Source of the DNA: a virus
Direction: 5' to 3' (one strand)
DNA length: 64,000 nt
Virus record (IMG/VR): IMGVR_UViG_3300026311_000001
Span: 1 to 64,000 of that record
Of this stretch, positions 1-63,561 are shown piece after piece (positions within the stretch are counted from its first letter, which is position 1; each line of letters begins with the position of its first letter). The translations under genes and the position numbers were made by a program. The notes beneath the pieces were generated by a model. It was not told the DNA's origin. It worked only from the letters and a program-made list of their open reading frames with translations, and did not search any database.

Positions 1-112
1 AATCTCCCTGCGAGACTAATCCAAGTCTTTCTTTACACTCGTCAAGTATTTCTATTGTATCTTCAATGGAGAGTTGTTGAATATTATATTTTTGTTTTTC
101 TGTAAGTGCCAT
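1..112 (-). CDS. hypothetical protein, N-terminal part only (runs off window)
   Basis: ATG at 112-110, open to base 1 (MALTEKQKYNIQQLSIEDTIEILDECKERLG...). It follows a cassette junction. Confidence 0.3.
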   Translation of the reverse strand, partial: MALTEKQKYNIQQLSIEDTIEILDECKERLGLVSQGD

Positions 113-176
113 TGTTACTGTATTACATGATTATTTACGTCTGTAAAGTGCGCTTATACATATGTTGTGCGCAATA

Positions 177-440: not shown

Positions 441-579
441 GTACTGCGCACAACACAAAATAAAAAACAGTGGGTGTTGTGCGGCTTTTTAGCCACTGTG
501 CCTTGTAGTTAAGTTTTAGCGGTTGGATAGGTCAAGACTTTCAAATCCCACCGATTTTTTATTCAAACCGTTATAGGGC
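441..579 (-). repeat. cassette junction element (attC-like), minus-strand array
   Basis: Minus strand: GCCCTATAACGG (568-579), then arm GGTTTGAATAAAAAATCGGTGGG, loop, arm CCCACTGTTTTTTATTTTGT, then GTTGTGCGCAGTAC (441-454). Confidence 0.6.
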
Positions 580-777: not shown

Positions 778-918
778 GCCCTATAACATTGTATAACCGC
801 AAGTGGGGGCATCGTGCCAAATGCAAGTTATTTGCTCCTAATTTAGTTTAGCGTCAAAGTGAATGTTCGGAGCTTTCAATCCCCCACCTGACGGTTATAC
901 TTTGCCGTTATGCACAAG
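778..918 (-). repeat. cassette junction element (attC-like), minus-strand array
   Basis: Minus strand: CTTGTGCATAACGG (905-918), arm AAAGTATAACCGTCAGGTGGGGG, loop, arm CCCCCACTTGCGGTTATACAAT, then GTTATAGGGC (778-787). Confidence 0.65.
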
Positions 919-1140: not shown

Positions 1141-1280
1141 GATGCATAACAGCACCTATAAAAAATAGCGGGGTTGTTGTTAATATTTAAGTTTGTATTT
1201 CAATTTTACTTTGTTTTTAATTCGATAGTCCGTGCTTTATAATCCGCTACTTTTCATAGCTGCATTACGTTAGCCACAAT
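1141..1280 (-). repeat. cassette junction element (attC-like), minus-strand array
   Basis: Minus strand: ATTGTGGCTAACG (1268-1280, with the stop TAA inside the box), arm GCAGCTATGAAAAGTAGCGGATTA, loop, arm CCCCGCTATTTTTTATAGGTGCT, then GTTATGCATC (1141-1150). Confidence 0.65.
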
Positions 1281-1575
1281 TATTGGCTTTTAAAAATCTT
1301 TCTACTGATGTTTTTGATACATATTCATATGGTTCTTGATTGTTGTAATAATCTACGAAAGCCAATAACAGTTCGCTTTGCTGGCTAACAAGCGATATAT
1401 TGTAGTTGCTCTCGCCATGTTCAACACCGTTCGCTAACCGTTCTTTAATAAGATTGATACATACTTCTAATCCAATTTTCACTCCTCTCCAATATGTGTC
1501 ATTTTCAATATCCTCTTTATGTTCAATTGTAATTTGTTCTATCTGTTTCTCTAAATTGTTTAATAATGTTTTCAT
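1270..1575 (-). CDS. hypothetical protein whose ORF spans a cassette junction
   Basis: 101-aa ORF. The right arm plus GTTAGCCAGC box (1380-1389) lie at about codon 63, so the N-terminal third is encoded inside the junction loop. Confidence 0.5.
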   Translation of the reverse strand: MKTLLNNLEKQIEQITIEHKEDIENDTYWRGVKIGLEVCINLIKERLANGVEHGESNYNISLVSQQSELLLAFVDYYNNQEPYEYVSKTSVERFLKANNCG

Positions 1576-1674
1576 AATCGCTCACTATTTAAGTTATTTA
1601 ACATTTCTTTATTTAATCAAAGTCATTAGTTTTACAACCGCAACCACAACATATCGCCAAACGTTAGCAACAAG
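1380..1674 (-). repeat. cassette junction element with long coding loop, minus-strand array
   Basis: Minus strand: CTTGTTGCTAACG (1662-1674), arm TTGGCGATATGTTGTGGTTGC, about 250-nt loop, arm GCAACTACAATATATCGCTT, then GTTAGCCAGC (1380-1389). Confidence 0.55.
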
Positions 1675-1890: not shown

Positions 1891-1999
1891 AGTTGCTAAC
1901 AAGCGGTCATAGTTAATAAAGCCGTGATATTGTTTAGTTCTTCGATTCAGCAGTAATGGCACGGCTTTACTAACCATACCACCAAACGTTATGTACAAG
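1891..1999 (-). repeat. cassette junction element (attC-like), minus-strand array
   Basis: Minus strand: CTTGTACATAACG (1987-1999), arm GGTGGTATGGTTAGTAAAGCCGTG, loop, arm CACGGCTTTATTAACTATGACCGCTT, then GTTAGCAAC (1891-1899). Confidence 0.6.
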
Positions 2000-6899: not shown

Positions 6900-6921
6900 C
6901 GTATTAAGTTTTAATTGGTTA

Positions 6922-24156: not shown

Positions 24157-24223
24157 AAATTTTAATTTTTAAGCTCCCTAATCAACTCTTACGTTGTGCA
24201 TCACTACACAAGCCCCTTGATCT

Positions 24224-45972: not shown

Positions 45973-47046
45973 GGCCATTACAAATTTTCCATTTTTTAGC
46001 ATATAAAACGTATCTGCCTTTATCTTTTTACCATCAACCTTTGCGGTCTTTACCGATTTTAACTCCCATCCATAACTATTTTGAACCCATTCTGAAAGCG
46101 TTATCCAACAATTTAACGGTGCTTTAGCTTTGTTTTTTATCCCGAATCCTACTGCCATAGAATGATTACTATCAATTCCCGTGATAGATGATTCAGATTC
46201 ATAACCTGTCGTGGTCGATACAGTACCTATACCTGATGCCTGTGAGACTGAACTGTAACCTGATGCCTGTGAGGCTGAACTGTAACCTGATGCCTGTGAG
46301 GCTGACCTGTCACCTGATGCCTGTGAGGCTGACCTGTAACCTGATGCCTGTGAGGCTGAACTGTCACCTGATGCCTGTGAGGCTGACCTGTCACCTAATG
46401 CCTGTGAGGCTGACCTGTCACCTGATGCCTGTGAGGCTGACCTGCCACCTGATGCCTGTGAGGCTGAACTGTCACCTGATGCCTGTGAGGCTGACCTGTC
46501 ACCTGATGCCTGTGAGGCTGACCTGTCACCTGATGCCTGTGAGGCTGACCTGTCACCTGATGCCTGTGAGGCTGAACTGTCACCTGATGCCTGTGAGACT
46601 GAACTGTAACCTGATGCCTGTGAGGCTGAACTGTAACCTGATGCCTGTGAGGCTGACCTGTCACCTGATGCCTGTGAGGCTGACCTGTCACCTGATGTAC
46701 TGTTTTCTTTAGTCCATGTAACTTTATCAAATATAAATTTAATTGCACATTCGACTAATGTTTTTATACTTATCTCCGTTTCCACGTGTATCTTAGATGA
46801 AGCTATTTTTGAATCATCATTTCCTTTGTCAATCTTACCATCTACTTTACAAATGGCAAACCTGTTATTAGCCGGAGGATAATAATTGAACACATCCAAC
46901 GGATATTCGCATGAATGAAATCCTTTATTCGTACACTGTACTGGTGTTTCATCCATTTCATAAGTTTTACCAATTTCATACTGAAATTCATTCTCATTTG
47001 GAGAACATTTTAAATCTTTGGCAAATCCTTTGTACGTAGTTTTCAT
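45952..47046 (-). CDS. tandem-repeat protein (17 x 9-aa SASQASGDR-type units between globular N- and C-terminal domains)
   Basis: Likely start MKTTYKGFAKDLKC...; the repeats are SGDRSASQA/SGYSSASQA/SGDSSASQA; the C-terminus reads ..CWITLSEWVQNSYGWELKSVKTAKVDGKKIKADTFYML. Confidence 0.6.
   Translation of the reverse strand: MKTTYKGFAKDLKCSPNENEFQYEIGKTYEMDETPVQCTNKGFHSCEYPLDVFNYYPPANNRFAICKVDGKIDKGNDDSKIASSKIHVETEISIKTLVECAIKFIFDKVTWTKENSTSGDRSASQASGDRSASQASGYSSASQASGYSSVSQASGDSSASQASGDRSASQASGDRSASQASGDRSASQASGDSSASQASGGRSASQASGDRSASQALGDRSASQASGDSSASQASGYRSASQASGDRSASQASGYSSASQASGYSSVSQASGIGTVSTTTGYESESSITGIDSNHSMAVGFGIKNKAKAPLNCWITLSEWVQNSYGWELKSVKTAKVDGKKIKADTFYMLKNGKFVMAKSITLP
46231..46696 (-). 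repeat. 27-bp tandem repeat, about 17 copies, in frame
   Basis: Unit CCTGATGCCTGTGAGGCTGACCTGTCA, with variants at 2-3 positions (GAC/GAA, TCA/TAA/CCA). Confidence 0.9.
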
Positions 47047-47069
47047 AGTGTTATTGATTAAAGTTGTTT

Positions 47070-48353
47070 GTAAACTACCCACCCACGCAAAGCGATGGGA
47101 TGGGCTTTAAACCTGACAACGAATGCAAAGAGCAATACATAGTCGATTTTTCAGCAGAATTTACGGTCTGCCCAAGCAAAGAGATAACTTTAGAAGCGTT
47201 ATAATCAGCGTCTATGGTATCTACATTGCAGTTTGTGTTTGTGCATTTAAACACTTTGTTTGTTCGTTTGCCAATATGTTTACATTCACAGCAAGTCTGC
47301 GAACTGTAAGCAGGATTGACCACAACAAGTTTAATCCCATTGAGCAAAGCCTTATATTCAAGTTTTACTCTCAAATCTGCAAAGTTCCATTTATTAAGTT
47401 TTGTCCTAAACTTTTTGTTTCTCCGTTTAGAAGTAAACCTGATATTGGTAAGGTCTTCAATGGAAATACCTTTACCCTGTTCTTTTGCAGATGCTACAAT
47501 AGATTTACTTATTGTGTGGTTAATCAAATTAGCCGTTGTTCTTTCCTTGCCACTAAGCCGTTTAGACAACTTCCTGCAATTCCTTTTAGTGGAACGCTTA
47601 GAAGTGTCTGCCTTTGCCTGAATAGAACTACGAACTTTTTGCCGATGTTCACGATAAGTATTAAGCCACTCGGCAGAATGGTTAATACCATCAGAAGTTG
47701 CTATAATCGTTGTCAAACCAAAATCACAACCGATAAATTCCTCAATGTCTTTAACATCTTCTTCGGGAACGTCAACGGTCTGAAACAGGTAAAACTTGCC
47801 TTTCTTATAAACCAAATCCGCTTCACCTTTAATGTAAGGCAGGTAGTTTCTATTATGGCAAACAAAGGGAACTTTAATCCTGCCACCGATAGCCCAAAGG
47901 GAAACAATATCGTTGGATTTGTAAGTCATAATCCTGCTATCATAACCAATGCTTCCAAGCGGTCTAAATTGTCTTTTGGTTTTCTTATCCAATTTGTAGC
48001 TATCAGCAACTTTTGCAATACATCTTACAAGAATTTGACTACTAAGTTTAAAAGTAGCCTTGTATTTATGATAAACCTCGTGATGCAATTTAAAATTATT
48101 GAAAATACGCTTCTCACAAGCCACATCAGAAATGGCATTGCAAACAGCATTAGCTTCCTTCATCGTGTCGAGAAGCAAGTTAGCCTGTTCATCGGCAGGC
48201 AAAAGCTTTATTTTCAATGTCAACTTCATGGCACAAAGATACGAAATAATTTCACATATAAGAAAAATAATTACTAATTTTGTTAAACAATTTAATTATG
48301 GAGCGACAATTCCTTCCATCGGCAGCAAAGCTGACCAATGGGTTTCCTTGCCG
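47070..48353 (-). mobile_element. IS605-family tnpB-only element (second subfamily)
   Basis: Left-end palindrome at 48300-48353, TATCTTTG box at 48234-48241, tnpB, and a right end at 47070-47110 (..GCCCATCCCATCGCTTTGCGTGGGTGGGTAGTTTAC). Confidence 0.6.
47075..48229 (-). CDS. tnpB: TnpB (RuvC-like RNA-guided nuclease family)
   Basis: IGCDFGLT (D), ISIEDLTNI (E), CCECKH....FKCTNTNCNVDTIDADYNASKVI (Zn finger plus D). Confidence 0.85.
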   Translation of the reverse strand: MKLTLKIKLLPADEQANLLLDTMKEANAVCNAISDVACEKRIFNNFKLHHEVYHKYKATFKLSSQILVRCIAKVADSYKLDKKTKRQFRPLGSIGYDSRIMTYKSNDIVSLWAIGGRIKVPFVCHNRNYLPYIKGEADLVYKKGKFYLFQTVDVPEEDVKDIEEFIGCDFGLTTIIATSDGINHSAEWLNTYREHRQKVRSSIQAKADTSKRSTKRNCRKLSKRLSGKERTTANLINHTISKSIVASAKEQGKGISIEDLTNIRFTSKRRNKKFRTKLNKWNFADLRVKLEYKALLNGIKLVVVNPAYSSQTCCECKHIGKRTNKVFKCTNTNCNVDTIDADYNASKVISLLGQTVNSAEKSTMYCSLHSLSGLKPIPSLCVGG

Positions 48354-50442: not shown

Positions 50443-51636
50443 TTATGCTCCATTTTGTGAACTACCCACCCACGCTAAAGCGATGGGATGGGCTTCATGG
50501 GTCAAAGCTCCTTCTAACGAAGGCAACGTACCATGATTTTTAAGTGTATGTTCCGTACACAATTTATTTAATGCGAAATTTTTAATATTAACGGAAGCGT
50601 TAAGATCACGATTAAAAACAGAACCACATTCAGGACAAACCCATTCACGGTCTTTGAGTGTAAGTTCTTTGTTAATGTATCCGCACGCTGAACATGTTTT
50701 AGAGCTTGGTTCAAATCTCCCAATCCTTAGAATGTTTACACCGTTCCATTTTGCTTTATATTCAAGCATAGCAACAAACATTCCCCATGATACGTCAGAA
50801 ATTGAACCTGCTAAACAGTGGTTCTTTAACATTCCAGAAATATTTAAGTCTTCCAAAGCAATAGATTGGTTCTCTCTTATTAACTCTGTACTGACCTTGT
50901 GCAAAAAGTCTTTTCTTTGGTTGGCTACTTTCTCATGTAGAATAGCTAACCGATGTTTACGCTTATTTGATTTGTGTCTTGAAAATTGTCGTTGCTGGTA
51001 TTTTAAGCGATCTATTGATTTACGTAAGTACTTTGGATTGTCGTATTCTTTGCCATTTGAGGCAACAAGAAAAGATTTAATTCCTAAATCCACCCCTACT
51101 GTTGTTTCTTCATTAACTGGTTTTGATTGTTTTTCTACCTCGCCAGTTTCGCAAAGAATAGATACAAAATATTTACCTGTTGGCGTTCTACTTATCGTAG
51201 CTTGTTTTATTTCTCCCTTTATCTGCCTATGTAATACAATATCAACACCCTTTTTAAACTTAGGAATAATAAGTTTGTCGTTATCAATTTTTATACTTTG
51301 TGGAATATTGAAAGACTGTTTTCCTCTACCCTTTTTCTTAAATTTAGGGAAATCAGTACGCCCCTTAAAGAAGTTTTCAAAAGCAGTGTTCATATTAACA
51401 ATAGATTGTTGCAAAGACTGGCTATTAACTTCTTTTAACCATTCATTTTCTTTTTTTAAATCAGGGAGTCGTTTAACAAGGCTATACCAAGAATGGTTGG
51501 TTTTGTCTTTAGCGTATTCTGATTGTTTAAAAGCCAAAGCATTGTTATACACAAAGCGAGCGCAACCAATATGTTTATTGATTAACTCAGCTTGTGGTGC
51601 TGTAGGATTCAAACGATATTTAAACGCTTTTAACAT
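50443..51636 (-). CDS. tnpB: TnpB (IS605 OrfB-type), paralogue of 44322..45500
   Basis: Long identical runs with the other copy (ATISRTPTGKYFVSILCETGEVEKQS; HKVSTELIRENQSIALEDLNI). D/E/D and the Zn finger are intact. Confidence 0.9.
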   Translation of the reverse strand: MLKAFKYRLNPTAPQAELINKHIGCARFVYNNALAFKQSEYAKDKTNHSWYSLVKRLPDLKKENEWLKEVNSQSLQQSIVNMNTAFENFFKGRTDFPKFKKKGRGKQSFNIPQSIKIDNDKLIIPKFKKGVDIVLHRQIKGEIKQATISRTPTGKYFVSILCETGEVEKQSKPVNEETTVGVDLGIKSFLVASNGKEYDNPKYLRKSIDRLKYQQRQFSRHKSNKRKHRLAILHEKVANQRKDFLHKVSTELIRENQSIALEDLNISGMLKNHCLAGSISDVSWGMFVAMLEYKAKWNGVNILRIGRFEPSSKTCSACGYINKELTLKDREWVCPECGSVFNRDLNASVNIKNFALNKLCTEHTLKNHGTLPSLEGALTHEAHPIALAWVGSSQNGA

Positions 51637-51734
51637 ATTGCAAATATACAATTTTTATATTAATTGTTATCTTTGTATAAGATTATTAACCATGCCTTAC
51701 ATCCAACCGACTGAAGATCGGTTGGTTTTACGGC
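50457..51734 (-). mobile_element. IS605-family tnpB-only element, paralogue of 44317-45622
   Basis: Right end at 50457-50496 (..GGGTGGGTAGTTCAC). Left-end hairpin at 51694-51734 (minus strand: GCCGTAAAACCAACCGATCTTCAGTCGGTTGGATGTAAGGC). Confidence 0.65.
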
Positions 51735-54489: not shown

Positions 54490-54947
54490 AAAAGACACTA
54501 GCAAAGTATTTGAAAAAAGAAATGGTAAGCATAGACCCATTTGCGAACAAATGCAAATTAGCAAAAATTACCAATGATTTAAACCCTGAATACGATACGG
54601 ATTACCATTTAGACGCTGTTGATTTTTTAAAGCAGTTTGAGGATAATTCAATTGATTTCGTTTTTTATGACCCACCATATTCATTAAGGCAGGTAAGCGA
54701 ATGCTATAAAAATGTTGGAATACCTGTTACAATGGAAACCACGCAAAGCAGTTGGAGAACAAAGCACATAAACGAAATTAGTCGAATACTAAAACCAAAC
54801 GGGATTGTAATGTGCTTTGGGTGGAATAGTTCGGGTGTGGGTAAAAAACGAGGCACTGAATTAATCGAAGTGTTATTGGTTGCTCACGGTGGTAGCCACA
54901 ATGATACAATTTGCACCGTAGAACGTAAGCCACCAAAGCTGTTTTAA
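54486..54947 (+). CDS. compact DNA (amino) methyltransferase, DPPY motif
   Basis: SIDFVFYDPPYSLRQ and ..RILKPNGIVMCFGWN. Confidence 0.65.
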   Translation: MKKTLAKYLKKEMVSIDPFANKCKLAKITNDLNPEYDTDYHLDAVDFLKQFEDNSIDFVFYDPPYSLRQVSECYKNVGIPVTMETTQSSWRTKHINEISRILKPNGIVMCFGWNSSGVGKKRGTELIEVLLVAHGGSHNDTICTVERKPPKLF

Positions 54948-55001
54948 CATTGCTGGTAATGTATCAAGTGTATATGACGTAAAAAAAGCTAACACCAAAC
55001 T

Positions 55002-55946
55002 ATGAACGAAGCACTAAAGGCATTTGAATTTAAAACCGAAGGGGAGGGAATTAATGTACTATCTCTTTTCGATGGGATGTCGTGTGGGCAAATTGCATTG
55101 CAGAAACTTGGTGTAAAAGTTAAAAACTATTTTGCCTCTGAGATTAAACCACACGCCATAAAAGTAACTCAACACAATTTCCCTGATACAATCCAGGTAG
55201 GTGATGTTACAAAACTACACGGTGAGTCATTTCCAAAAATAGACTTGCTAATAGGTGGCTCACCTTGTCAGGATTTTAGCAGGGGTAATGCAATACGTGA
55301 TGGATTGAATGGGATTAAATCAGGGCTTTTCTTTGAATACTTACGGCTAAAAGCTGAATTAAATCCTACCTATTGGCTACTTGAAAATGTAGTGATGAGT
55401 GATGCTGATTATTTCACCATTAGCAACTACATGAAAACCGAACCAGTAAGGATTAATTCGGCTTTGATTTCTGCTCAATTACGTGACCGCCTTTATTGGA
55501 CAAACGTAGGTCCGGAATACTTCGACTTATTTGGTAGCCGTAAGTGTGTAATACCACAACCAAAAGATAAAGGAATACTACTTAAACACATTTTAGAAAG
55601 TGGATATACTGATAGAGAAAAAAGCAGAGCATTACTTGAAAGTGATAGCCGACCATTACGGACACTTGAAAAAATGTGGCATAGATATTCTGATACAGGA
55701 TTTACAACTGTGGTATTTGAAAGCCCTGATTTAGATTGGCAAAAAGGATTGAGATACTTTACACAAACTGAATTAGAAAGACTACAAACTGTACCCGAAG
55801 GATACACCTCAATTTTGAAACGTAATGACGCAGCGTGTTTACTTGGTGATGGTTGGACTGTTGATGTTATTGCTCATATCTTGTCTTTCATGCGCGTGGG
55901 GGTTTTAAATTCAAATGCCTTACCCGAACTACAATATGAAACATGA
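55002..55946 (+). CDS. DNA (cytosine-5) methyltransferase
   Basis: VLSLFDGMSCG (motif I), GGSPCQDFS (IV, PC), LLENV (VI), TELERLQTVPEGYT (IX-like), LGDGWTVDVIAHI (X). Confidence 0.9.
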   Translation: MNEALKAFEFKTEGEGINVLSLFDGMSCGQIALQKLGVKVKNYFASEIKPHAIKVTQHNFPDTIQVGDVTKLHGESFPKIDLLIGGSPCQDFSRGNAIRDGLNGIKSGLFFEYLRLKAELNPTYWLLENVVMSDADYFTISNYMKTEPVRINSALISAQLRDRLYWTNVGPEYFDLFGSRKCVIPQPKDKGILLKHILESGYTDREKSRALLESDSRPLRTLEKMWHRYSDTGFTTVVFESPDLDWQKGLRYFTQTELERLQTVPEGYTSILKRNDAACLLGDGWTVDVIAHILSFMRVGVLNSNALPELQYET

Positions 55947-56110
55947 ACTCAATAGCTTTTTTTATGGCATATACACGTTGTTATGTGCTGTAAACCGTGA
56001 GCGTATGGCAAGCCCAACATGTGCGGTGGGAATGGATTTGAAGCATTGCATATACGGCTGGTATATGCTGTGCGGCCTCCGGCAGGGGTTGGGCTTATTG
56101 AGGAGGTTTA

Positions 56111-56249
56111 TTGCACATAACGTTGAGTGTAACCGCATGTAGCGGATTAGAAAGTAATAACCTATCAAATTATACGAATATGAATAAAGAGCAGAACACT
56201 TCGCAAACCACAGAACCCGCTATTGCGGTTGACACTGTGTTAGGCAACG
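56111..56249 (+). repeat. cassette junction element J1
   Basis: TTGCACATAAC (pairs with GTTATGTGC at 55980), arms AGTGTAACCGCATGTAGCGG / CCGCTATTGCGGTTGACACT, ATG 56180 in the loop, then GTTAGGCAACG. Confidence 0.65.
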
Positions 56250-56437
56250 TACTTTATTTACCTGAATTGGTAATGAGTTGGAAATCTTTAAATGTAGATA
56301 ATTTTGGTGTTAAACTACCAATTACAACATATCCAGGGATGGGTAAATATTGGATACCTGTATTTGAAAGCATTGAAGAATGCAAAAAAGAATATCCTGA
56401 CAGTAAGGTGATAATTATAAAACAAGGGCAATGGTAG
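56180..56437 (+). CDS. hypothetical cassette protein
   Basis: ATG in the J1 loop (MNKEQNTSQTTEPAIAVDTVLGNV...), in frame through the GTTA-box. Confidence 0.5.
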   Translation: MNKEQNTSQTTEPAIAVDTVLGNVLYLPELVMSWKSLNVDNFGVKLPITTYPGMGKYWIPVFESIEECKKEYPDSKVIIIKQGQW

Positions 56438-56440
56438 TAT

Positions 56441-56499
56441 GTTGCCTAACGGTTAGTATAAACGGTCGTTTTAATGCCGTTTATACATTGTTGTGTGTC
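56441..56499 (+). repeat. cassette junction element J2 (minimal, 59 bp)
   Basis: GTTGCCTAAC-GGTTAGTATAAACGGTC-gttttaat-GCCGTTTATACATT-GTTGTGTGTC. Confidence 0.7.
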
Positions 56500-56604: not shown

Positions 56605-56913
56605 ATGAAAGTATTAACAGAAGGTCACAAGTACCAATTAAGCGGTTTTGAGAACGCTGAAAACACTCAAGAAATCCAATTCATTGAGAAAACGCCAATT
56701 GAAGGCACAACCGAATTGAAAACGGTAAATGATGGAACAACTAACGAGGAACTTCTTGAAGTCTTAATTGACCGAATGAACTACTTACAAGGAAAATTCC
56801 CTTGCCGTGAAAATGCAATTGTAATTACTAAACTTCAAGAATCTTTGATGTGGTTAGAAAAAAGAACGTCTGACCGTAAAAAGAGAAATGTAGAAGGTAA
56901 ACAATTGGCTTAA
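56605..56913 (+). CDS. hypothetical cassette protein
   Basis: Track ORF of 102 aa. Confidence 0.55.
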   Translation: MKVLTEGHKYQLSGFENAENTQEIQFIEKTPIEGTTELKTVNDGTTNEELLEVLIDRMNYLQGKFPCRENAIVITKLQESLMWLEKRTSDRKKRNVEGKQLA

Positions 56914-56986: not shown

Positions 56987-57291
56987 TTGCACACAACAAG
57001 GCTGGCGGTATGGGTATGTTTGCCCAACGCACCGCACCGGACTTGAATTGAAATACTTAACTTAAAAATACGAGCGATGGCATATTATTCATTGAATACA
57101 CAAATAAACAAAGGGAAATACAAAGGGAAAAAAGTAGAGGAACTTATTAAAAGTACCGAAGGGCAAAAATATCTTCTTGCCTTACATATTGGAAACTATA
57201 ATGTGTTTTTAAACCCAGAAGTATTCAGAGCGTTGGCAGATTACACTCGAACAAAGAACGGCAAATTACCTATACCGCATGTTAGCGATAC
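56987..57291 (+). repeat. cassette junction element J3 (long coding loop)
   Basis: TTGCACACAAC, arm GCGGTATGGGTA ... arm TACCTATACCGC, then GTTAGCGATAC. The loop contains the first ~68 codons of ORF 57077. Confidence 0.55.
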
Positions 57292-57388
57292 GGTTTGCGA
57301 TAATCCGCATTGCGTAGACGGTGTAGTAGCTGAAATATATGGCGAAAAAGTTTACTGCGATAAATGTCAATCGCAAACTGGACGCTAA
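57077..57388 (+). CDS. hypothetical Cys-rich protein spanning a junction
   Basis: 103 aa. ..GKLPIPHVSDTVCDNPHCVDG...CDKCQ. The stop TAA lies inside the TAAC-box GACGCTAAC. Confidence 0.5.
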   Translation: MAYYSLNTQINKGKYKGKKVEELIKSTEGQKYLLALHIGNYNVFLNPEVFRALADYTRTKNGKLPIPHVSDTVCDNPHCVDGVVAEIYGEKVYCDKCQSQTGR

Positions 57389-57510
57389 CGTTTGACGGTA
57401 TCAGCAGTATTTGCTTCACTAAATTTAATTTTAAACACAAATGACAAAATTAGCAGAAAATAATCCACAAGGCACGGCAAATATTGCTGATGACTGTGTG
57501 TTAGCCACCG
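57381..57510 (+). repeat. cassette junction element J4
   Basis: GACGCTAAC, arms ATCAGCAGTATTTGC / GCAAATATTGCTGAT, ATG 57441 in the loop, then GTTAGCCACCG. Confidence 0.65.
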
Positions 57511-57767
57511 TACTTTTATGTGATTGCGGGTCGGCGGAGCATCAAATAATAATACATAAAGACAAAGATTTTTCAGAAGGATATAGAGAAGTGATACTTT
57601 GTCCACACTTAATCACATACCGTAATATTTTCAAACGGGTATTGGTTGCTTTTAAATACATATTTGGTTATAAATGCAAATATGGTGCGTGGGATAGTAT
57701 CATAGTTTCGAAACAAAATTATCTACCATTAAAAGAAGCTGTGGAGTTTCTTGAGTATGGTGGCTAA
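57441..57767 (+). CDS. hypothetical cassette protein
   Basis: 108 aa. Stop inside GGTGGCTAAC. Confidence 0.5.
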   Translation: MTKLAENNPQGTANIADDCVLATVLLCDCGSAEHQIIIHKDKDFSEGYREVILCPHLITYRNIFKRVLVAFKYIFGYKCKYGAWDSIIVSKQNYLPLKEAVEFLEYGG

Positions 57768-57894
57768 CGGACGAGCGTATGAGTAGTGGCGGATAGAATG
57801 CAACTACCTTTCGTAAAGCACAAAGATTGAAAAGAGAACTAAACTTAAATATTAACACAAAAACCGCCATTACTTATACGCATTGTTAGCGGTA
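57759..57894 (+). repeat. cassette junction element J5
   Basis: GGTGGCTAAC, arms GCGTATGAGTAGTGGCGG / CCGCCATTACTTATACGC, then GTTAGCGGTA. Confidence 0.7.
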
Positions 57895-57921
57895 TGTATG
57901 GGCGGATTAGAAGTACAAAAG

Positions 57922-58476
57922 ATGAAAAAATACGAAATAATTTACGCAGATCCAGCTTGGCAATATAAGACCAAAGAAAGCCTTGCAAAAACAAGTATTT
58001 TGAATGGGGAGCTTAACACCCATTATGGAACGATGACTATTGCTGAGTTGGGTGGGTTGCCGTTGGGGAGCATTTCAGATAAAAACTCTATGCTGTTTAT
58101 GTGGGTGGTTAGCCCGATGCTTGATGATGGAATTGAACTTATGAAAAAATGGGGCTTTAAATATAGCACAATAGCTTTTATTTGGCACAAACAAAGGGCT
58201 AACCCTGGACATTATACTATGAGCGAATGTGAAATATGTTTAGTTGGAAGGCGGGGTAAAATACCAACTCCAAGAGGGGCAAGAAATGTTCGTCAGTTTT
58301 TATCTGAAATGCGTGGAAAACACTCTGCTAAACCAACTGAAATAAGAAATAGAATTGAACTTATGTTTCCAACACAAACAAAATTAGAAATGTTTGCAAG
58401 GCAGAGTGCGAAGGGTTGGGATGCGTGGGGAAACGAGGTTGAAAATAGCATTGACCTTAGCCCATATTACCGCTAA
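57922..58476 (+). CDS. MT-A70-family DNA N6-adenine methyltransferase
   Basis: IIYADPAWQY (DPPW-type motif IV), MLFMWV, KWGFKY, HSAKP. Confidence 0.9.
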   Translation: MKKYEIIYADPAWQYKTKESLAKTSILNGELNTHYGTMTIAELGGLPLGSISDKNSMLFMWVVSPMLDDGIELMKKWGFKYSTIAFIWHKQRANPGHYTMSECEICLVGRRGKIPTPRGARNVRQFLSEMRGKHSAKPTEIRNRIELMFPTQTKLEMFARQSAKGWDAWGNEVENSIDLSPYYR

Positions 58477-58569
58477 CGGCTTGTGGTATGAAATCGAAAC
58501 CGACACCACCACAGCCTGAACAATGCGACTAAGCAACCAGAGGTTTTGTTTTATACCACTTGTTAGCCA
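58468..58569 (+). repeat. cassette junction element J6
   Basis: TACCGCTAAC (pairs with GTTAGCGGTA at 57885), arms GTGGTATGAAATCGAAACC / GGTTTTGTTTTATACCAC, then GTTAGCCA. Confidence 0.7.
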
Positions 58570-58611
58570 TCTGGTGCGGTCAATTAGTAATAAACTTAAT
58601 TTGAAAACGAA

Positions 58612-59019
58612 ATGGAAGCAAAAAATTTTAGAATTGGAAATTTACTTACAAGCAAAGGATGGGGAAATGTTGGGGCAATTGAAGGGATTGAAATTACACA
58701 AGATGGTTTTGAATTGAAAGTAAAAGGGTATGTGCATCCTTGGGAAAAAGACAAATATTTTGATTTAGCCCCAATTGAATTAGATGAAGAATGGCTTACA
58801 AAATTTGGATTTATTGAAGAAACTCCAAACGAGTTTATACTACGGAAACATCCGATAATTTTTAACATTCATAGAAATTTAGTCACTGGTGAGTTTATGT
58901 CCAGAATGAACCCGAATTATTCAATATTAGTTAAATCTGTTCATCAATTGCAGAATTTATTTTTTGCGCTTACAAAAGATGAACTTGAATTGAAAACGGA
59001 ATGTAGCACTTGTGGCTAA
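58612..59019 (+). CDS. hypothetical cassette protein
   Basis: 135 aa. Stop inside TGTGGCTAAC. Confidence 0.55.
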   Translation: MEAKNFRIGNLLTSKGWGNVGAIEGIEITQDGFELKVKGYVHPWEKDKYFDLAPIELDEEWLTKFGFIEETPNEFILRKHPIIFNIHRNLVTGEFMSRMNPNYSILVKSVHQLQNLFFALTKDELELKTECSTCG

Positions 59020-59112
59020 CGGTCGGGTATTGGCGATGCCCGCACTTAGAAACTTTAAATTATAAACAAGCTGTCCAGCGGGTATTGCCAATACCTTGTT
59101 AGCAGCAGTAAC
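59010..59112 (+). repeat. cassette junction element J7
   Basis: TTGTGGCTAAC, arms GGGTATTGGCGATGCCCGC / GCGGGTATTGCCAATACC, then GTTAGCAGCAGTAAC. Confidence 0.7.
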
Positions 59113-59124
59113 GGATTAAAAAAA

Positions 59125-59313
59125 ATGGAACAGTCAAAACAAGAAAAAGAAATTTATGAGTTAGCAGAACTTTTGATGCAGTCTGAAAACTTAGAAGCAA
59201 GTGCAACTATCCTTCGTGATTTTGCTGAAAAGTGTTATCAAGAAGGGGCGGTTGATGCTCAAAAAGATGCAGCGGAAGAAATACGTGAACACTATGTCGA
59301 AGGTGGTCGGTAG
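59125..59313 (+). CDS. hypothetical acidic small protein
   Basis: Track ORF of 62 aa. Confidence 0.5.
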   Translation: MEQSKQEKEIYELAELLMQSENLEASATILRDFAEKCYQEGAVDAQKDAAEEIREHYVEGGR

Positions 59314-59457
59314 TTATTGCTGCTAACGGTTGATTATATGAAACGGTGGGGATTTAAAGCCTTACATTTTCGCATCGTAATAAACTAACAACAAGGCAGG
59401 TGGGCTAAAAAGACGTATGACACCCCACTGTTTTATATAATGTGTTGTGCGCAGTAC
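59313..59457 (+). repeat. cassette junction element J8
   Basis: GTTATTGCTGCTAAC (14 of 15 complementary to 59098-59112), arms ATTATATGAAACGGTGGGG / CCCCACTGTTTTATATAAT, then GTTGTGCGCAGTAC. Confidence 0.7.
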
Positions 59458-59461
59458 GGTT

Positions 59462-59662
59462 ATGAAATTTGCAGTAACAGTTTTTAATACTGAAAGAGTT
59501 TCTTACGAAGAAATAAAAGACGTAGGACACACGAAAATTTTTAATGACACTGATAGTTTGAAAGATATAATTGAATGGGGAAACTCTATTCGTGCAAAAA
59601 CCTATGATGGGCCAAAAACAGTTGATATAACAGAATTAAGATTCAGCAAGTTGTGTGAGTAG
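59462..59662 (+). CDS. hypothetical cassette protein
   Basis: Likely ATG at 59462 (MKFAVTVFNTE...). Confidence 0.5.
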   Translation: MKFAVTVFNTERVSYEEIKDVGHTKIFNDTDSLKDIIEWGNSIRAKTYDGPKTVDITELRFSKLCE

Positions 59663-59763
59663 TATTGCGCACAACGGATGGGTATATGAAAAGTAGCCCA
59701 ACCGCAAACTTTGAACAACGCACGAACCTTTCATGGGCTATTTTTTATATACCGTGTTAGCTG
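59662..59763 (+). repeat. cassette junction element J9
   Basis: GTATTGCGCACAAC, arms GGTATATGAAAAGTAGCCCA / TGGGCTATTTTTTATATACC, then GTTAGCTG. Confidence 0.7.
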
Positions 59764-59795
59764 TCTGGTGCGGATTTTAAAAACAAAACTTTAAT

Positions 59796-60629
59796 ATGAA
59801 AAACGAACGTAGTAATAATATTTTTTTGAGCGGTGGCAAAAATGGTTTTGAAAAAAACAAAAACATCCTTTGGTATGGTGAATGCCTTCAGATGATGAAG
59901 CAAATACCTGACCAGAGTATAAACCTAATCTGCTGTGATTTACCCTATGGTGTGACTAAAAATAAATGGGATTCATTAATTGACTTGGATTTGCTTTGGG
60001 AGCAATACGAAAGAGTAATAGTTGAAAATGGTGCAATAGTTCTTTTTGGACAAGATAAATTTTCTGCAAGGTTGATGCTTTCAAATGAGAAGCTACATAG
60101 ATATAACTTGATATGGCAGAAAACCACACCAACAGGACATTTGAACGCTAAAAGAATGCCCTTAAGAAGCCACGAAGATATATTGGTGTTTTACAAGAAA
60201 TTACCAACATATAACCCACAAAAAACGACTGGACACAAAAGGAAGGTAAGCACAGCAAAGCATAAGCGAAACTCAAAAAAGACAACCAATTACGGTGAAC
60301 ACGGATTGACAACTTATGATAGTACCGAACGCTACCCGAAAAGTGTTTTGACCTTTGCAACTGATAAACAGAAATCAGCATTACATCCAACACAAAAACC
60401 GCTGGAGTTGATTAAATATCTTGTAAAAACATATTCAAATGAAAATGATTGGGTACTTGATAATACTTGCGGAAGTAACACAACTGGACTTGCTTGCTTT
60501 GAATTAAACCGAAACTATATTGGAATTGAGAATGATTTTGATATGTACGAAATTTCAAAAGAGCGGGTGGGAGAAAAAAATATTATTACGGCTGATATGC
60601 ACGAACCTTCAATTAAAACTGGAACGTAG
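59796..60629 (+). CDS. DNA methyltransferase, N6/N4 (PF01555-like, beta-class order)
   Basis: LICCDLPYGV (motif IV variant), ...HPTQKPLELIKYLVKTYS....VLDNTCGSNTTG (motif I). Confidence 0.85.
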   Translation: MKNERSNNIFLSGGKNGFEKNKNILWYGECLQMMKQIPDQSINLICCDLPYGVTKNKWDSLIDLDLLWEQYERVIVENGAIVLFGQDKFSARLMLSNEKLHRYNLIWQKTTPTGHLNAKRMPLRSHEDILVFYKKLPTYNPQKTTGHKRKVSTAKHKRNSKKTTNYGEHGLTTYDSTERYPKSVLTFATDKQKSALHPTQKPLELIKYLVKTYSNENDWVLDNTCGSNTTGLACFELNRNYIGIENDFDMYEISKERVGEKNIITADMHEPSIKTGT

Positions 60630-60632
60630 CAC

Positions 60633-60773
60633 TTGCAGCTAACGGATTACGGCTATGAAGCGTTGCCGAGTAAAACGCCCTAACTTTCAAATTAAAAATA
60701 AAATGAATAAAGAGAACAAAACTTCGGATAAGCACGAACACGGCAATGATTTTATAGCCGATGTTATGCAACG
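60633..60773 (+). repeat. cassette junction element J10
   Basis: TTGCAGCTAAC (pairs with GTTAGCTG at 59756), arms CGGCTATGAAGCGTTGCCG / CGGCAATGATTTTATAGCCG, ATG 60703 in the loop, then GTTATGCAACG. Confidence 0.65.
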
Positions 60774-60921
60774 TTTTTTAATTTATGCTGATGACTACAT
60801 CACTTGGAACAAACAAAAAAATGACTGGAATCATTCTGATGAATTTACAGGCACTTACTTAGACGCTCACGAATATGCCCGTTCAAAATATGGTAAGCGT
60901 TATACTTTAAATGTTGCATAA
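60703..60921 (+). CDS. hypothetical cassette protein
   Basis: MNKENKTSDKHEHGNDFIADVMQRF... Stop inside GTTGCATAAC. Confidence 0.5.
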   Translation: MNKENKTSDKHEHGNDFIADVMQRFLIYADDYITWNKQKNDWNHSDEFTGTYLDAHEYARSKYGKRYTLNVA

Positions 60922-61049
60922 CGTGTTGCAAATAAATATAGTACGATTATGAAAGAAAAAATTATCGAAATAGTAGGATTTAACATGGAACCCGAAAGGG
61001 CTGAACTTATTGCGCAGCGAGTATTGGATTTATTTGCTGTTATGCGACG
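60913..61049 (+). repeat. cassette junction element J11
   Basis: GTTGCATAAC (10 of 10 with GTTATGCAAC at 60763), arms GCAAATAAATATAGTAC / GTATTGGATTTATTTGC, ATG 60949 in the loop, then GTTATGCGACG. Confidence 0.65.
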
Positions 61050-61254
61050 TTTTAATTTTAGAATTGTAAAAGACGTGAATAGAGATAAAAAACACCCAGG
61101 ATGGGAAATGATTAATTACGGATTAGAAATTGATAATGAAATAGTATGTTGGTTTGCTTATGAACATCCACAAATGACATTAGAAGAAATTAAGTTGCAA
61201 CAAAATAAAAGAGAATTATATGAAGAAATTGTGCGCAGGGTAAATGGCGCATAA
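60949..61254 (+). CDS. hypothetical cassette protein
   Basis: 101 aa. Stop inside GGCGCATAAC. Confidence 0.5.
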   Translation: MKEKIIEIVGFNMEPERAELIAQRVLDLFAVMRRFNFRIVKDVNRDKKHPGWEMINYGLEIDNEIVCWFAYEHPQMTLEEIKLQQNKRELYEEIVRRVNGA

Positions 61255-61349
61255 CGGTTGAGGCTAAGAAACGTAGCCTTGTAATCACGTTTCAAAATAG
61301 GCAGGAACTTGTCAGGCTATGTTTTTTAGCCTTTGTTACCGCCAGTTAA
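61246..61349 (+). repeat. cassette junction element J12
   Basis: GGCGCATAAC, arms GGCTAAGAAACGTAGCCT / AGGCTATGTTTTTTAGCC, then GTTACCGCCAGTTAA. Confidence 0.7.
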
Positions 61350-61360
61350 TTTTAAAAGTC

Positions 61361-61618
61361 ATGAGTAATTATTTGGAATTTCAAGAAATTAAATCAGATT
61401 ATTTTAATGCTGATGGTGAATTTTACGGAGGATTCACAGGATGCTCGCCTGTAAAAAATATTATGGAAAAAATGAACAAAACTATTGAGGAAATGGCAGA
61501 ACATTCAAAACGCCTTGTTGCTCAAATTGAATCTTTTGACTTTATAAACAAAGAACCATTAAATTTAAAAGATAGTGAACATTTTATTAACTTAAAAAAA
61601 TATATAGATTATGTGTAA
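61361..61618 (+). CDS. hypothetical cassette protein
   Basis: Likely ATG at 61361 (MSNYLEFQEIK...). Confidence 0.5.
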   Translation: MSNYLEFQEIKSDYFNADGEFYGGFTGCSPVKNIMEKMNKTIEEMAEHSKRLVAQIESFDFINKEPLNLKDSEHFINLKKYIDYV

Positions 61619-61817
61619 ATATAAAAAATCAAACCCGCAACCTAAAAACATTCCATATCCAAGAGTTCAATTTGAATCTGAGTGTGGATTTAAACTTATG
61701 TTAACAGAAGGATATGACCAAGATTGGCATAACCACAAAAAATACGGACAGCCATTATTGCCAAAAGGTAAATGCTTAAAGTGTCAGTCTGAAATTGAAG
61801 TAGTGCCGTCTTTTTAA
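61611..61817 (+). CDS. hypothetical small protein (CxxC)
   Basis: 68 aa. Overlaps the previous ORF by 8 nt, so there are two ORFs in one cassette. Confidence 0.45.
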   Translation: MCKYKKSNPQPKNIPYPRVQFESECGFKLMLTEGYDQDWHNHKKYGQPLLPKGKCLKCQSEIEVVPSF

Positions 61818-61959
61818 TTGGCGGTAACGGTGGGTGTAGCTGCCAGTGGCGGCAAGTAACCGAAAAGCATAATTAGAATTATAAACTTTAAAATACTTAC
61901 AAAATGTCAAACGAAGAACAACACCAGCCATTGCAGCTACACGATGTTAGCCGCTGCCC
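61814..61959 (+). repeat. cassette junction element J13
   Basis: TTAATTGGCGGTAAC (14 of 15 with 61335-61349), arms GTGTAGCTGCCAGTGGC / GCCATTGCAGCTACAC, ATG 61904 in the loop, then GTTAGCCGCTGCCC. Confidence 0.7.
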
Positions 61960-62275
61960 TTCTGATGTTGAAATGATTGAATCATTAAATAAGAAGGTTG
62001 AAGAAAAACAACGAAAACTTAATGACCTGGAAAACAAATTCAGGGAATGCCGGGAAGAGTACAGGCAACTTATATCTTTTCAAATCGCTCAATTAAGAGC
62101 AGTACAGATGCTTTACGATGTGATGAAAAACGGAAATACTCACTATCAAAAGGCTTTATTTGCTGAAATAGCTAAGGAATCGCTTGGCCGAGAAATAGGT
62201 TCACTTATTGAACGCTATCAAAACACTAAATGGAAATTTCGATTAGGTGACGAACCTGACGAACTACCGTTTTAG
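61904..62275 (+). CDS. coiled-coil protein with SSB-like acidic C-terminal tip
   Basis: Ends ..LGDEPDELPF*; compare the phage SSB candidate, which ends ..GADDLPF*. Confidence 0.5.
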   Translation: MSNEEQHQPLQLHDVSRCPSDVEMIESLNKKVEEKQRKLNDLENKFRECREEYRQLISFQIAQLRAVQMLYDVMKNGNTHYQKALFAEIAKESLGREIGSLIERYQNTKWKFRLGDEPDELPF

Positions 62276-62277
62276 GG

Positions 62278-62416
62278 TTGCGGCTAACGTTGGGTATATG
62301 ACCAGTAGCGGATTAAATAGTAATAACTTATCAAATTAGTAGAATGAATATAGAAAGCACAGAACTTCAAAACAGCACCGCCCCCGCTATTGGTTATATA
62401 CCGGGTTATGCACAGG
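62278..62416 (+). repeat. cassette junction element J14
   Basis: TTGCGGCTAAC, arms GGGTATATGACCAGTAGCGG / CCGCTATTGGTTATATACC, ATG 62344 in the loop, then GTTATGCACAGG. Confidence 0.7.
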
Positions 62417-63423
62417 TTTTTTCTCATCGTTTTCCTTATCGTTGGACTTTGAAAGATGCCAACTTTACAAAGGATAAGGGCAAAGTATTTAGTTGCTTTG
62501 CTTGTGGTGGTGGTTCAACAATGGGTTACAAATTAGCGGGGTTTGATGTGATAGGATGCAATGAGATTGACCCTAAAATGATGGAAGCATACCGAACTAA
62601 CCACAACCCCAAATACAGCTATTTAGAACCGATACAAACCTTTAAACTTAGAAAGGATTTACCAAAGGAATTATACAACCTTGATATTTTGGACGGTTCA
62701 CCACCTTGTAGCAGTTTTTCAATGGCTGGAAATAGAGAAAAAGACTGGGGTAAAGATAAGGTTTTTAGAGAAGGTCAAGCGATGCAAGTTTTAGATACTT
62801 TGTTTTTTGATTTTATTGATTTGGCGAAGAAATTACAGCCGAAAGTTGTGGTTGCTGAAAATGTGAAAGGGTTGCTTTTAGGCGAAGCGAAGAAATATGT
62901 AAGACAAATATACCGTGAGTTTGACCAAGCAGGATATTACTGCCAACATTGGCTTTTAGATGCTTCAAAAATGGGTGTACCTCAAAGACGTGAGCGAGTG
63001 TTTTTTATTTGTTTACGTAAAGATTTAGCTGAACCTTTTTTGTATCAGCAAGATTTGTTTACGGTTAATCCTAAATTGGAATTGAATTTTAATGAGCCGG
63101 AAATACCTATAAAGCAATTTGCAAAAGGTATTGCAAAAAAAGAAAGTCAAAATTATTCAGAAGATAGATTTGGCGATGTAATGTTAGACTTGAATAGAGC
63201 AAGCAACACAATAGCGACAGACATAAATAGATATTGGCTTGATGAAAATACGTTGATTGATAAAAACACAGTTAGCTTAATAGGTAGTTATCCTATTGAT
63301 TACAACCACTTGGAATTTAACAACCCTCAGTATTTAATCGGAATGAGCGTTCCGCCTGTAATGACAGCAAACATAGCGACTGAAATTTATTCGCAATGGC
63401 TCTCAAAATTGGCACGGTCTTAA
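62344..63423 (+). CDS. DNA (cytosine-5) methyltransferase
   Basis: FSCFACGGGSTMGY (I), DGSPPCSSFS (IV), VVAENVKGLL (VI), VPQRRERVFF (VIII), IGMSVPPVM (X). About 45 aa of N-terminal leader is encoded in the junction. Confidence 0.9.
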   Translation: MNIESTELQNSTAPAIGYIPGYAQVFSHRFPYRWTLKDANFTKDKGKVFSCFACGGGSTMGYKLAGFDVIGCNEIDPKMMEAYRTNHNPKYSYLEPIQTFKLRKDLPKELYNLDILDGSPPCSSFSMAGNREKDWGKDKVFREGQAMQVLDTLFFDFIDLAKKLQPKVVVAENVKGLLLGEAKKYVRQIYREFDQAGYYCQHWLLDASKMGVPQRRERVFFICLRKDLAEPFLYQQDLFTVNPKLELNFNEPEIPIKQFAKGIAKKESQNYSEDRFGDVMLDLNRASNTIATDINRYWLDENTLIDKNTVSLIGSYPIDYNHLEFNNPQYLIGMSVPPVMTANIATEIYSQWLSKLARS

Positions 63424-63424
63424 A

Positions 63425-63561
63425 CTTGTGCATAACGGCTGCGGGTATGACCAGTGGCGGATTACGAGTACAAAACTTTCAAAATACGATACAGAATGAA
63501 CGAAGCAAATAACTTTCAAATAGCAGAAAACCCGCCATTGGTTATACCCGATGTTAGCAAC
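63425..63561 (+). repeat. cassette junction element J15
   Basis: CTTGTGCATAAC (11 of 12 with 62405-62416), arms CGGGTATGACCAGTGGCGG / CCGCCATTGGTTATACCCG, ATG 63496 in the loop, then GTTAGCAAC. Confidence 0.7.

Follow-up and report, generated by a model that had tools for sequence, protein, structure and literature searches.

The window and its two gene arrays

The window analysed here is the whole 64,000-nucleotide (nt) stretch of the IMG/VR virus record IMGVR_UViG_3300026311_000001 (bioreactor metagenome; G+C ~35%), which holds two runs of short genes with similar intergenic elements between the genes. One array occupies the plus strand from ~54.9 kb to past 64 kb, and the other the minus strand at ~2.0-0.17 kb. 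The intergenic elements, here called junction hairpins, are probably attC-like recombination sites of a phage-borne integron analogue. Together with 9.4 kb beyond the window, ~73 kb of the window's phage was analysed, and an 83-kb sister contig of the window exists. The window is read as phage DNA because its methylase genes match genes of Flavobacterium phages at 80-86%, it encodes a phage lysozyme, and NinG and a very large LPD38 protein are encoded just past it.

A scan for YAAC..GTTR boxes with pairing arms returned 14 plus-strand and 5 minus-strand copies, to which were added the short element 56443-56497 and the gene-enclosing arms 54968-54991 / 55953-55976. The window thus holds ~21 junction hairpins: 15 on the plus strand, a sixteenth there whose loop is as long as a gene, and 5 on the minus strand. 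A wobble-blind scanner found 17 elements in the window against 0-1 in local shuffles. A generic inverted-repeat finder missed most copies because it scores G:T as a mismatch, and a covariance model built on loop-trimmed copies (R1) recovered the short-loop copies only, so purpose-written scanners were used. A search of the junctions against Rfam 15 returned no family at E <= 1.

Architecture of the junction hairpins

Read along the coding strand, the upstream gene's stop codon falls within, or immediately ahead of, a box whose last letters are YAAC (mostly GCTAAC or GCATAAC), which is followed by 4-7 unpaired nt and then by the left arm, typically ..GGTAT(A)TGAnnnnAGTnnnnn. The right arm is complementary to the left, nnnnnATTnnnnTTATA(T)ACC.., and is followed by 2-3 unpaired nt and a box starting GTTR. 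Between the arms, the loop measures 11 to ~240 nt, and ~960 nt in one element. The AAC and GTT triplets are invariant in 19/19 window copies.

The first element of the plus array, 54942..55988 (+), has the 5' box TTTTAAC and the 3' box GTTATGTGC. Its arms (left 54968-54991, right 55953-55976) are 24 nt long, with 22 matches, one G:T and one mismatch, and its "loop" encloses the entire C5-methylase gene 55002-55946. In one contig of the source run, 55921 is connected with the reverse-complemented stretch 55017-54988; such a fold-back across the methylase gene could reflect either an inverted variant or an error of assembly. The hairpin at 56115..56245 (+), measured box to box, holds in its loop the start of open reading frame (ORF) 56180-56437. 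The minimal junction 56443..56497 (+) consists of a perfect 10-bp stem with a conserved apical CGGTCGTTTTAATGCCG, and belongs with "P12002L_attC1" (Qi et al., 2023) to one type. ORF 57077-57388 begins in the loop of the long-loop hairpin 56991..57287 (+) and runs through its right arm.

Further along the plus array come the hairpins at 57383..57506 (+), 57762..57891 (+; J5 in the initial annotation; arms GCGTATGAGTAGTGGCGG / CCGCCATTACTTATACGC, with two G:T), 58471..58568 (+; two G:T and a bulged T in the left arm) and 59014..59104 (+; two G:T, at positions 12 and 15). Stem positions are counted from the GTT box throughout, since the right arm is gapless relative to it. The hairpins 59321..59450 (+; J8), which with its downstream gene is paralogous to the minus-strand cassette 576-177, and 59669..59762 (+; J9) follow, the latter scoring 31.5 bits on the plus strand and 13.2 bits on the minus strand with the covariance model. 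At 60637..60769 (+) the hairpin is overlapped by ORF 60655-60921, which runs beyond the 3' box, and the hairpin at 60916..61045 (+) is degenerate and weak. The hairpin 61249..61341 (+) scores 30.8 bits (+) against 9.0 bits (-). RNA contigs start in the loop of 61822..61952 (+), at 61872-61910. The hairpin 62282..62411 (+) precedes a C5-methylase cassette, and 63430..63559 (+; J15), where RNA contigs start at 63438-63547, precedes an N6/N4-methylase cassette.

The minus array begins with the hairpin 1894..1994 (-) and continues with the long-loop hairpin 1383..1669 (-), in whose loop ORF 1575-1270 begins. The hairpins 1144..1275 (-) and 781..913 (-), the cassette of the latter being 851-570, lead to the last hairpin of the array, 448..576 (-). 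The array terminus lies in 1..166 (-), which reads ..GCGCACAAC / ATATGTATAAGCGCAC.. with the boundary between the two.

Covariation, wobble pairs and strand asymmetry

The initial annotation proposed that the arms co-vary, quoting four arm pairs that match the sequence exactly (copies 57762-57891, 59321-59450, 59669-59762 and 63430-63559). Covariation is confirmed across 19 copies, with compensatory changes at 16 of 18 stem pairs. In an alignment of the 19 loop-trimmed window copies (MAFFT, A1), 80.5% of cells pair, compared with 59.3 +/- 1.8 in column shuffles (0/500), and 106 cells are altered on both sides, compared with 46 (0/500). The covariation score is 0.539 against 0.177 in shuffles, and reaches a maximum of 0.213 when partners are slid by 1-3 columns. 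These figures are on the cautious side, since five bulged copies stay out of register in this alignment.

Two stem columns, at positions 10 and 15, have G:U as their most frequent pair (11/19 and 15/19, respectively). The same G:T oppositions had been described as present at both places in every copy; the second is near-universal, while the first is A-T or another pair in ~8 copies. A:C-type oppositions number zero within the window stems. A bulged T in the left arm, adjoining the second wobble, occurs in 5/20 window copies.

Folding of both strands with DNA parameters bears out the predicted difference, in that the sense strand is more stable in 14/18 copies, by a mean of ~2.7 kcal/mol. The energy gap between sense and antisense folds is modest. 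The strand asymmetry holds in the window and also in 214 + 335 further copies that were oriented independently of the wobble, by the asymmetry of their spacers or by the direction of a recombinase gene beside them.

Pairing with the same bias had also been reported between boxes across a gene. The 3' box of a hairpin matches the box before the next hairpin at 11.2/16 positions, as against 7.25/16 for boxes of the same junction or of other junctions. At position 11 of this box stem, a G in the upstream box (R') stands opposite a T in the downstream box (R'').

A family of elements in Bacteroidota phages

The elements extend well beyond the window. Polaribacter phage P12002L, a cultured lytic siphovirus, has at least 10 copies of the same design, on the coding strand, in two arrays and with G:T at the same two places. 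The 17-mer at the apex of the minimal junction 56443-56497 is present in >118 IMG/VR contigs, and 105/120 of its occurrences lie in YAAC..GTTR context. It is also found in >120 genome contigs, mostly of Bacteroidota; the non-Bacteroidota matches are chance matches in coding sequence. Stand-alone minimal hairpins occur in L132, L147, L160 and other Bacteroidota genome contigs. Their own two extended boxes pair together, and a T-run often lies 8-12 nt past the GTT box; such hairpins could represent empty sites, or else elements resembling terminators, of chromosomes or prophages.

A purpose-written scanner that scores G:T and A:C equally found 222 elements in 118 viral loci (1.02 Mb), compared with 8-15 in shuffles. 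The 118 contigs yielded 214 copies that could be oriented by spacer asymmetry alone, and the direction of the wobble matches this spacer-based orientation in 192/205 cases. Most stem positions show all four Watson-Crick pair types. G in the 5' arm opposite T in the 3' arm was counted 338 times against 43 for A:C, whereas T:G (47) and C:A (42) are equal; the parity of A:C and G:T that the initial annotation had named as telling against its proposal is thus not seen. G:T stands at position 15 in 163/214 copies (76%), at position 10 in 63 and at position 12 in 56, and the bulged left-arm T recurs in 26/214. Because G:T is enriched at fixed places while T:G equals C:A, the wobble is not a mere tolerated transition. 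Judged by these counts, it is a position- and arm-specific feature under selection, and it looks like a recognition or strand mark more than a simple stabilisation. Element orientation is linked with the coding strand: in 184/243 cases the sense strand of the element carries an ORF of >=50 codons that terminates at the 5' box, as against 46/243 for the other strand.

Cassette boundaries and shuffling

Comparison of related contigs places the ends of the mobile unit. In a contig of another metagenome (L008) that is 100% identical to window positions 851-570 (-), the similarity stops exactly after ..CCTATAAC (..CTATAAC), and the contig departs into unrelated DNA without a hairpin. The unit 56998-57390, which runs from just past one AAC to the next AAC, is missing from groundwater and landfill metagenome contigs. 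In a sister contig, ..GTTGCTAAC closes the final methylase cassette of the plus array and is followed by ATATGTATAAGCGCAC.., which also follows ..GCGCACAAC at the end of the minus array, so that the same terminal sequence stands after two different last cassettes. Both P12002L arrays likewise finish with identical post-AAC sequence.

The cultured phages P12002L and P12002S have flanks that are 97-99.9% identical and differ by cassette insertions, one replacement and one swap of order; 4/5 of the breakpoints fall at the AAC, AACG or AACGT of the 5' box. Across loci, near-identical segments have internal ends at the 5' box in 17 cases (-4 to +12 nt), at the 3' box in 0 and in the right arm in 2. 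The sequence comparisons indicate that the hairpin travels with the downstream gene and that the boundary is just after the 5' box (..AAC|), because the breakpoints fall at this box. The paralogous cassettes 59321-59675 (+) and 576-164 (-) agree, as hairpin and gene are related between them and the following hairpin is not.

One P12002S insertion is of another kind. This 343-nt segment (L011, 48.36-48.70 kb; compared with P12002L, L010, ~47.4 kb) does not have hairpins at its edges and is flanked on both sides by the promoter-like motif ..AACTTTAAAAA.., a second, PeSL-like gene boundary in these phages.

An array-linked recombinase and a terminal site

Clustering of the ORFs around the 118 viral loci revealed a tyrosine recombinase of 267-271 amino acids (aa) in four loci, with Phage_integrase and Phage_int_SAM_4 domains. 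In all four, the gene begins 40-52 nt after the ..AAC of the last cassette and lies on the cassette strand. Its profile matches are all under the family cut-offs: 170 bits to the archaeal XerA "tyrosine recombinase/integron integrase" family, ~146 bits to XerC/XerD, and 150 bits to the "integron integrase" TIGR02249 (cut-off 265), the last in two stretches that skip model positions ~205-234, the IntI-specific insertion. Among PDB entries, XerA 4A8E (155 bits) ranks above IntI4 2A3V (131 bits, two stretches), XerA 5HXY (121 bits) and XerD (111 bits). These similarities place the linked recombinase in the Xer/IntI clade, closest to XerA.

The association with the arrays is tight and directional. 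Array-linked recombinases are encoded, for instance, in IMGVR_UViG_3300033121_001355 and 3300012031_000016. When 80 viral loci were fetched and oriented by the recombinase protein alone, co-oriented elements numbered 82, 74, 53, 54, 23, 19 and 11 in successive upstream kb and 0-3 per kb downstream, and opposite-oriented elements numbered nine in total. An element lies within 4 kb upstream of the recombinase in 54/58 loci with sufficient upstream sequence. G:T stands at position 15 in 282/335 elements of these recombinase-linked arrays.

A conserved junction, ..YAAC|TA(T/G)nATATAT.., lies 35-55 nt before the recombinase start codon, and four locus sets have identical post-AAC sequence behind different last cassettes. 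By its position and conservation, ..AAC|TAnnATATAT appears to be an attI-like primary site at the array end. The window's terminal sequence, AAC|ATATGTATAAGC.., resembles this site and is followed by no recombinase; a metagenome scan with the window's terminal 26-mer gave no match. The window encodes no tyrosine recombinase; nor do the adjoining 9.4 kb or the complete P12002L and P12002S genomes. The window's arrays are orphans, having a terminal site but no recombinase in ~73 kb.

Shuffling by homology alone would account for part of this evidence. The boxes and the starts of the arms would serve as short homologies for a phage Rad52/Erf-type annealase, an exonuclease and NinG/Rap, in the manner proposed for the PeSL cassettes of T4-like phages (PMC2839356, PMC4122927), and the recombinase at the array end would be an ordinary integrase. 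P12002L encodes a Rad52-family protein and NinG/Rap, NinG adjoins the array terminus in the window's phage, and annealase, exonuclease and NinG families recur beside arrays. With annealases and NinG/Rap encoded by the phages, shuffling of this kind may take place in orphan arrays. The P12002L/S breakpoint inside an arm and the spread of shared-segment ends over 0-12 nt past AAC also fit. Homology does not, however, predict 17 breakpoints at the 5' site (with 2 in the right arm) and 0 at the equally conserved, inverted 3' site, nor cassettes that switch precisely at the end of AAC to unrelated DNA, or to a shared terminal sequence, without homology past that point. Compensatory covariation and fixed wobbles are not required by homology, and a recombinase directly behind the array and co-oriented with it is hard to reconcile with an ordinary integrase, which makes this account improbable.

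Cargo, probable promoters and transcripts

The window's cargo comprises four or five DNA methylases (MT-A70, two N6_N4 and two C5), an Acb2/Tad1-like protein and small proteins of unknown function. The Acb2/Tad1-hairpin-like cassette protein, encoded at 56605-56913 (+), scores 25.8 bits with the Pfam model (cut-off 27) and matches PHROG 2428 at E = 2e-24; on these matches its product is a candidate sponge for cyclic-nucleotide immune signals. Reading the genes between hairpins is a route to the discovery of anti-defence genes.

The cassettes probably carry their own promoters, because the loop motif AAACTT[AT]AA is sense-specific (40 vs 2) and RNA contigs from four metatranscriptomes start in loops (the 61872-61910 and 63438-63547 starts given above). 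ORFs that start in a loop and continue through the right arm fit this arrangement. Programmed translational bypass was considered for ORFs reading through the right arm and was dropped, as the take-off and landing codons mismatch.

The transcripts bring in a possible function in RNA, the second of two readings offered in the initial annotation beside an attC-like recombinogenic strand. Long-range box stems that bracket genes, together with junction hairpins of 18-22 bp, would process or stabilise monocistronic messenger RNAs (mRNAs), much as the RNase III stalks of rRNA operons or the T7 early RNase III sites do, and G:U would be tolerated or would provide recognition points. The restriction of the wobbles to the sense strand, the orientation of the elements along the coding strand and the 12-15 bp stems bracketing genes are all as expected, and RNA contigs cross several junctions, with a depth that differs up to ~50-fold between cassettes. 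Mere tolerance of wobble is contradicted by the enrichment of G:T, and not of T:G, at fixed places only. Many transcripts would be without a left arm, since RNA contigs start in the promoter-like loops, and an RNA role leaves unexplained why DNA boundaries lie at the 5' box, why the terminal site is conserved and why a recombinase is linked. Both readings thus find support in the data, and RNA function as the sole explanation is unlikely; the same elements may have an RNA role in addition. The attC-like reading is favoured by independent evidence, because boundaries lie at the 5' box, the association with the recombinase is tight and directional, and the published IntI1 crossover is at AA|C.

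Proposed mechanism

Read as attC-like sites, the junction hairpins would define a cassette that consists of spacer, left arm, loop (often with a promoter-like motif, at times with a start codon or a whole small gene), right arm, GTTR box, gene and YAAC box. Once single-stranded, the sense strand would fold by pairing of the arms over 18-24 bp with one or two G:T. In an excised cassette, the extended boxes would pair as well (12-15 bp, one G:T) and stack with the arms around an asymmetric bubble of 4-7 vs 2-3 nt. The resulting two-arm duplex with its bubble may mimic a core site of the Xer/dif type, as do attC and the attP(+) hairpin of CTX phage. A tyrosine recombinase of the Xer/IntI clade would cleave the sense strand within or just after the AAC of the 5' box (..AA|C or ..AAC|), and the exchange partner would be another hairpin site or the array-terminal ..AAC|TAnnATATAT, whereby cassettes are inserted, excised and reshuffled. 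The cassettes of the window's phage would be moved in trans, or would have moved in the past.

The strand would be marked by G:T at position 15 and at position 10 or 12 of the arm stem, and at position 11 of the box stem. The sense strand would form a continuous helix, and the antisense strand would have A:C mismatches at those same places. The three wobbles are obvious candidates for telling the strands apart, or else for contacts with protein at each bound arm's outer edge.

Prior work on P12002L bears on this model in two ways. Qi et al. predicted two attC sites in this phage and called them a CALIN, and IntI1 recombined one of them, P12002L_attC2, the array-terminal site, at the G|TT of the predicted attC, which corresponds to AA|C of the 5' box on the sense strand (PMC9892861). 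IntI1 failed on the other, the minimal hairpin P12002L_attC1 (PMC9892861), and this failure is one of several observations that weigh against the attC-like reading. The antisense strand still folds with DNA parameters. The bulged base is on the 5' arm of the proposed active strand, whereas the extrahelical bases of attC are on the 3' arm, and an antisense reading puts A:C mismatches where attC bulges sit. One of the five P12002L/S breakpoints lies five bases into the left arm and not at the box. Activity on arrays of the window's type has to be inferred, as the window, its 9.4-kb flank and P12002L/S are without a recombinase, and the linked recombinase itself is without the IntI-specific insertion, so that homology does not warrant the assumption that it recognises single strands. 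Among the assembled DNA and RNA contigs there were no excised circles or joints, although rare forms would escape notice in such assemblies.

A very improbable alternative is that the sites work as double-stranded, dif-like core sites of alternating orientation (arm, ~6 bp centre, arm), comparable to the pdif modules on which Xer acts in Acinetobacter plasmids, with the hairpins as a by-product of facing sites: the recombinase is nearest to XerA/XerC/XerD, the 5' box, 4-7 nt spacer and arm start give an 11-6-11-like layout with GCATAAC boxes that resemble Xer arms, and the spacer went with either side in different events, yet the junction-specific arms co-vary over 18-24 bp, well beyond a protein half-site, the facing "sites" differ in spacing (AAC-9-TATG vs TATA-6-GTT) and at three fixed transition positions, and just one of the two serves as a boundary.

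Other features of the window

Several further features lie outside the arrays. A sugar-nucleotide/glycosyltransferase cluster at 37.6-43.7 kb, within phage-like DNA, encodes GDP-mannose 4,6-dehydratase, an epimerase, a fragment of a DegT-type aminotransferase and three glycosyltransferases. Two proteins, 10498-11052 (+) and 33735-34442 (-), have a C-terminal Cpn10 (GroES) domain after an unrelated N-terminal part. A type-P3 twister ribozyme at 5550-5620 (-; 48 bits, gathering score 39.9) lies directly between the small minus-strand genes 5617-6027 and 5380-5616, a position that suggests self-cleavage of a polycistronic transcript. A direct repeat of ~70 nt with 98.6% identity (6207-6278 and 6920-6991; ..AAATATTTGCACAGTAATAATAATGTATGTACATTTACTTCATCAAATTATTACAAGCTCTTT..) lies upstream of two minus-strand genes and may be a duplicated promoter or leader.

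HEARO, the guide RNA of the IscB/IsrB type, has two full-length matches, at 24012-24243 (-) and 45720-45970 (-), with 117 and 104 bits. One match is upstream of the 374-aa ORF 22850-23974, which has a Cas12f1-like TNB domain, and the other is between the 397-aa ORF 44322-45515 and the 376-aa DUF7666 ORF 45952-47082. With the further TnpB-like ORFs 47075-48229 and 50443-51651, the window has four genes of the RNA-guided-nuclease type. TnpB/IsrB elements with HEARO RNAs were considered as partners of the arrays and rejected as unrelated to them. The IS200-type Y1 transposase ORF 9308-9694 (-) was likewise rejected as the enzyme acting on the hairpins, as it is truncated and has no counterpart in relatives. 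It is the window's only Y1_Tnp ORF, covers model positions 3-81/121, adjoins no TnpB gene and is probably decayed; no homologue was found in P12002L, P12002S or the 118 viral loci.

Comparison with known systems

The two P12002L attC sites called CALIN are the part of this family that is already known (Qi et al., 2023; PMC9892861). A literature search returned no description of the family, its polarity, the wobble marks, the promoter-bearing cassettes or the family's own recombinase.

Elements of IS200/IS605 and REP/RAYT, in which Y1 HUH enzymes act on hairpins, do not match, as the arrays have no associated Y1 transposase. The PeSLs (promoter-early stem-loops) of T4-like phages are cassettes that share a conserved early promoter and a stem-loop terminator and are thought to be exchanged by homologous recombination (Arbiol 2010, PMC2839356; Comeau 2014, PMC4122927). 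Like the junction hairpins, they are intergenic promoter and stem-loop motifs found where the genomes of lytic phages are hyperplastic, and they delimit small genes that have been reshuffled among relatives. PeSLs are conserved in sequence and have no AAC/GTT outer boxes, compensatory covariation, fixed wobbles or linked recombinase. The window's elements have the sense-specific AAACTT[AT]AA motif and RNA starts in their loops, yet their arms are not conserved in sequence and their breakpoints are site-specific.

Xer recombination on folded or modular sites, such as the CTX phage attP(+) hairpin and pdif, is similar in that a core site would be mimicked by two duplex arms with a partly unpaired centre and inverted sites bracket genes. 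The phage arrays differ in that the recombinase is encoded by the element in some members, the arrays are long and made of single genes, and the arms vary freely with compensation.

Integrons are the textbook bacterial gene-capture device, thought to depend on the IntI-specific domain and on the bulged bases of attC. The phage arrays resemble integrons and CALINs in their single-gene cassettes, the imperfect palindromes between them, the AAC/GTT outer triplets, the unpaired spacer and the structure-conserved inner arms. Complementarity of the outer box reaches across the gene instead of lying inside the junction, one strand is favoured, a primary site and a recombinase gene stand at one array end, and orphan arrays exist. 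Along the cut strand of an integron, the order is cassettes, attI and intI, and each cassette starts with a folded attC and ends ..AA|C. The phage arrays have the same order along the recombined strand, but that strand is here the coding strand, and for this reason the hairpin precedes the gene and the recombinase is co-directional.

Several differences remain. The phage boundary is at the 5' box of the sense strand and not at the G|TT of the 3' box with attC behind the gene. The recombinase is ~270 aa long, lacks the IntI insertion and is co-directional with the cassettes instead of divergent, and the sites have fixed G:T wobbles in place of most extrahelical bases. The loops seem to bear promoters and can hold entire genes, the hosts are phages of Bacteroidota, and the cargo consists of methylases and anti-defence genes. 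Two of the features that define integrons are found here, namely AAC/GTT boxes with structure-conserved arms and a primary site beside the recombinase gene. Two others, the IntI-specific insertion and a G|TT boundary behind the gene, are absent, and the arrays are therefore classed as an integron-like variant and not as an integron.

If this reading is true, the capture of cassettes on folded single strands arose or diversified beyond IntI, in another Xer/IntI branch, with wobble marks, hairpins before genes and promoters of the cassettes' own. It would account for the rapid swapping of methylases and anti-defence genes by lytic Bacteroidota phages, and it would provide a simple testable rule, in which one G:T change is set against strand choice. 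The odds are about even that the arrays form a separate integron-type system, widespread in Bacteroidota phages, in which a small Xer-like recombinase without the IntI insertion, encoded behind the array and co-directional with it, captures promoter-bearing anti-defence and methylase cassettes by way of folded sense-strand sites, with strand choice set by fixed G:T wobbles in place of extrahelical bases.

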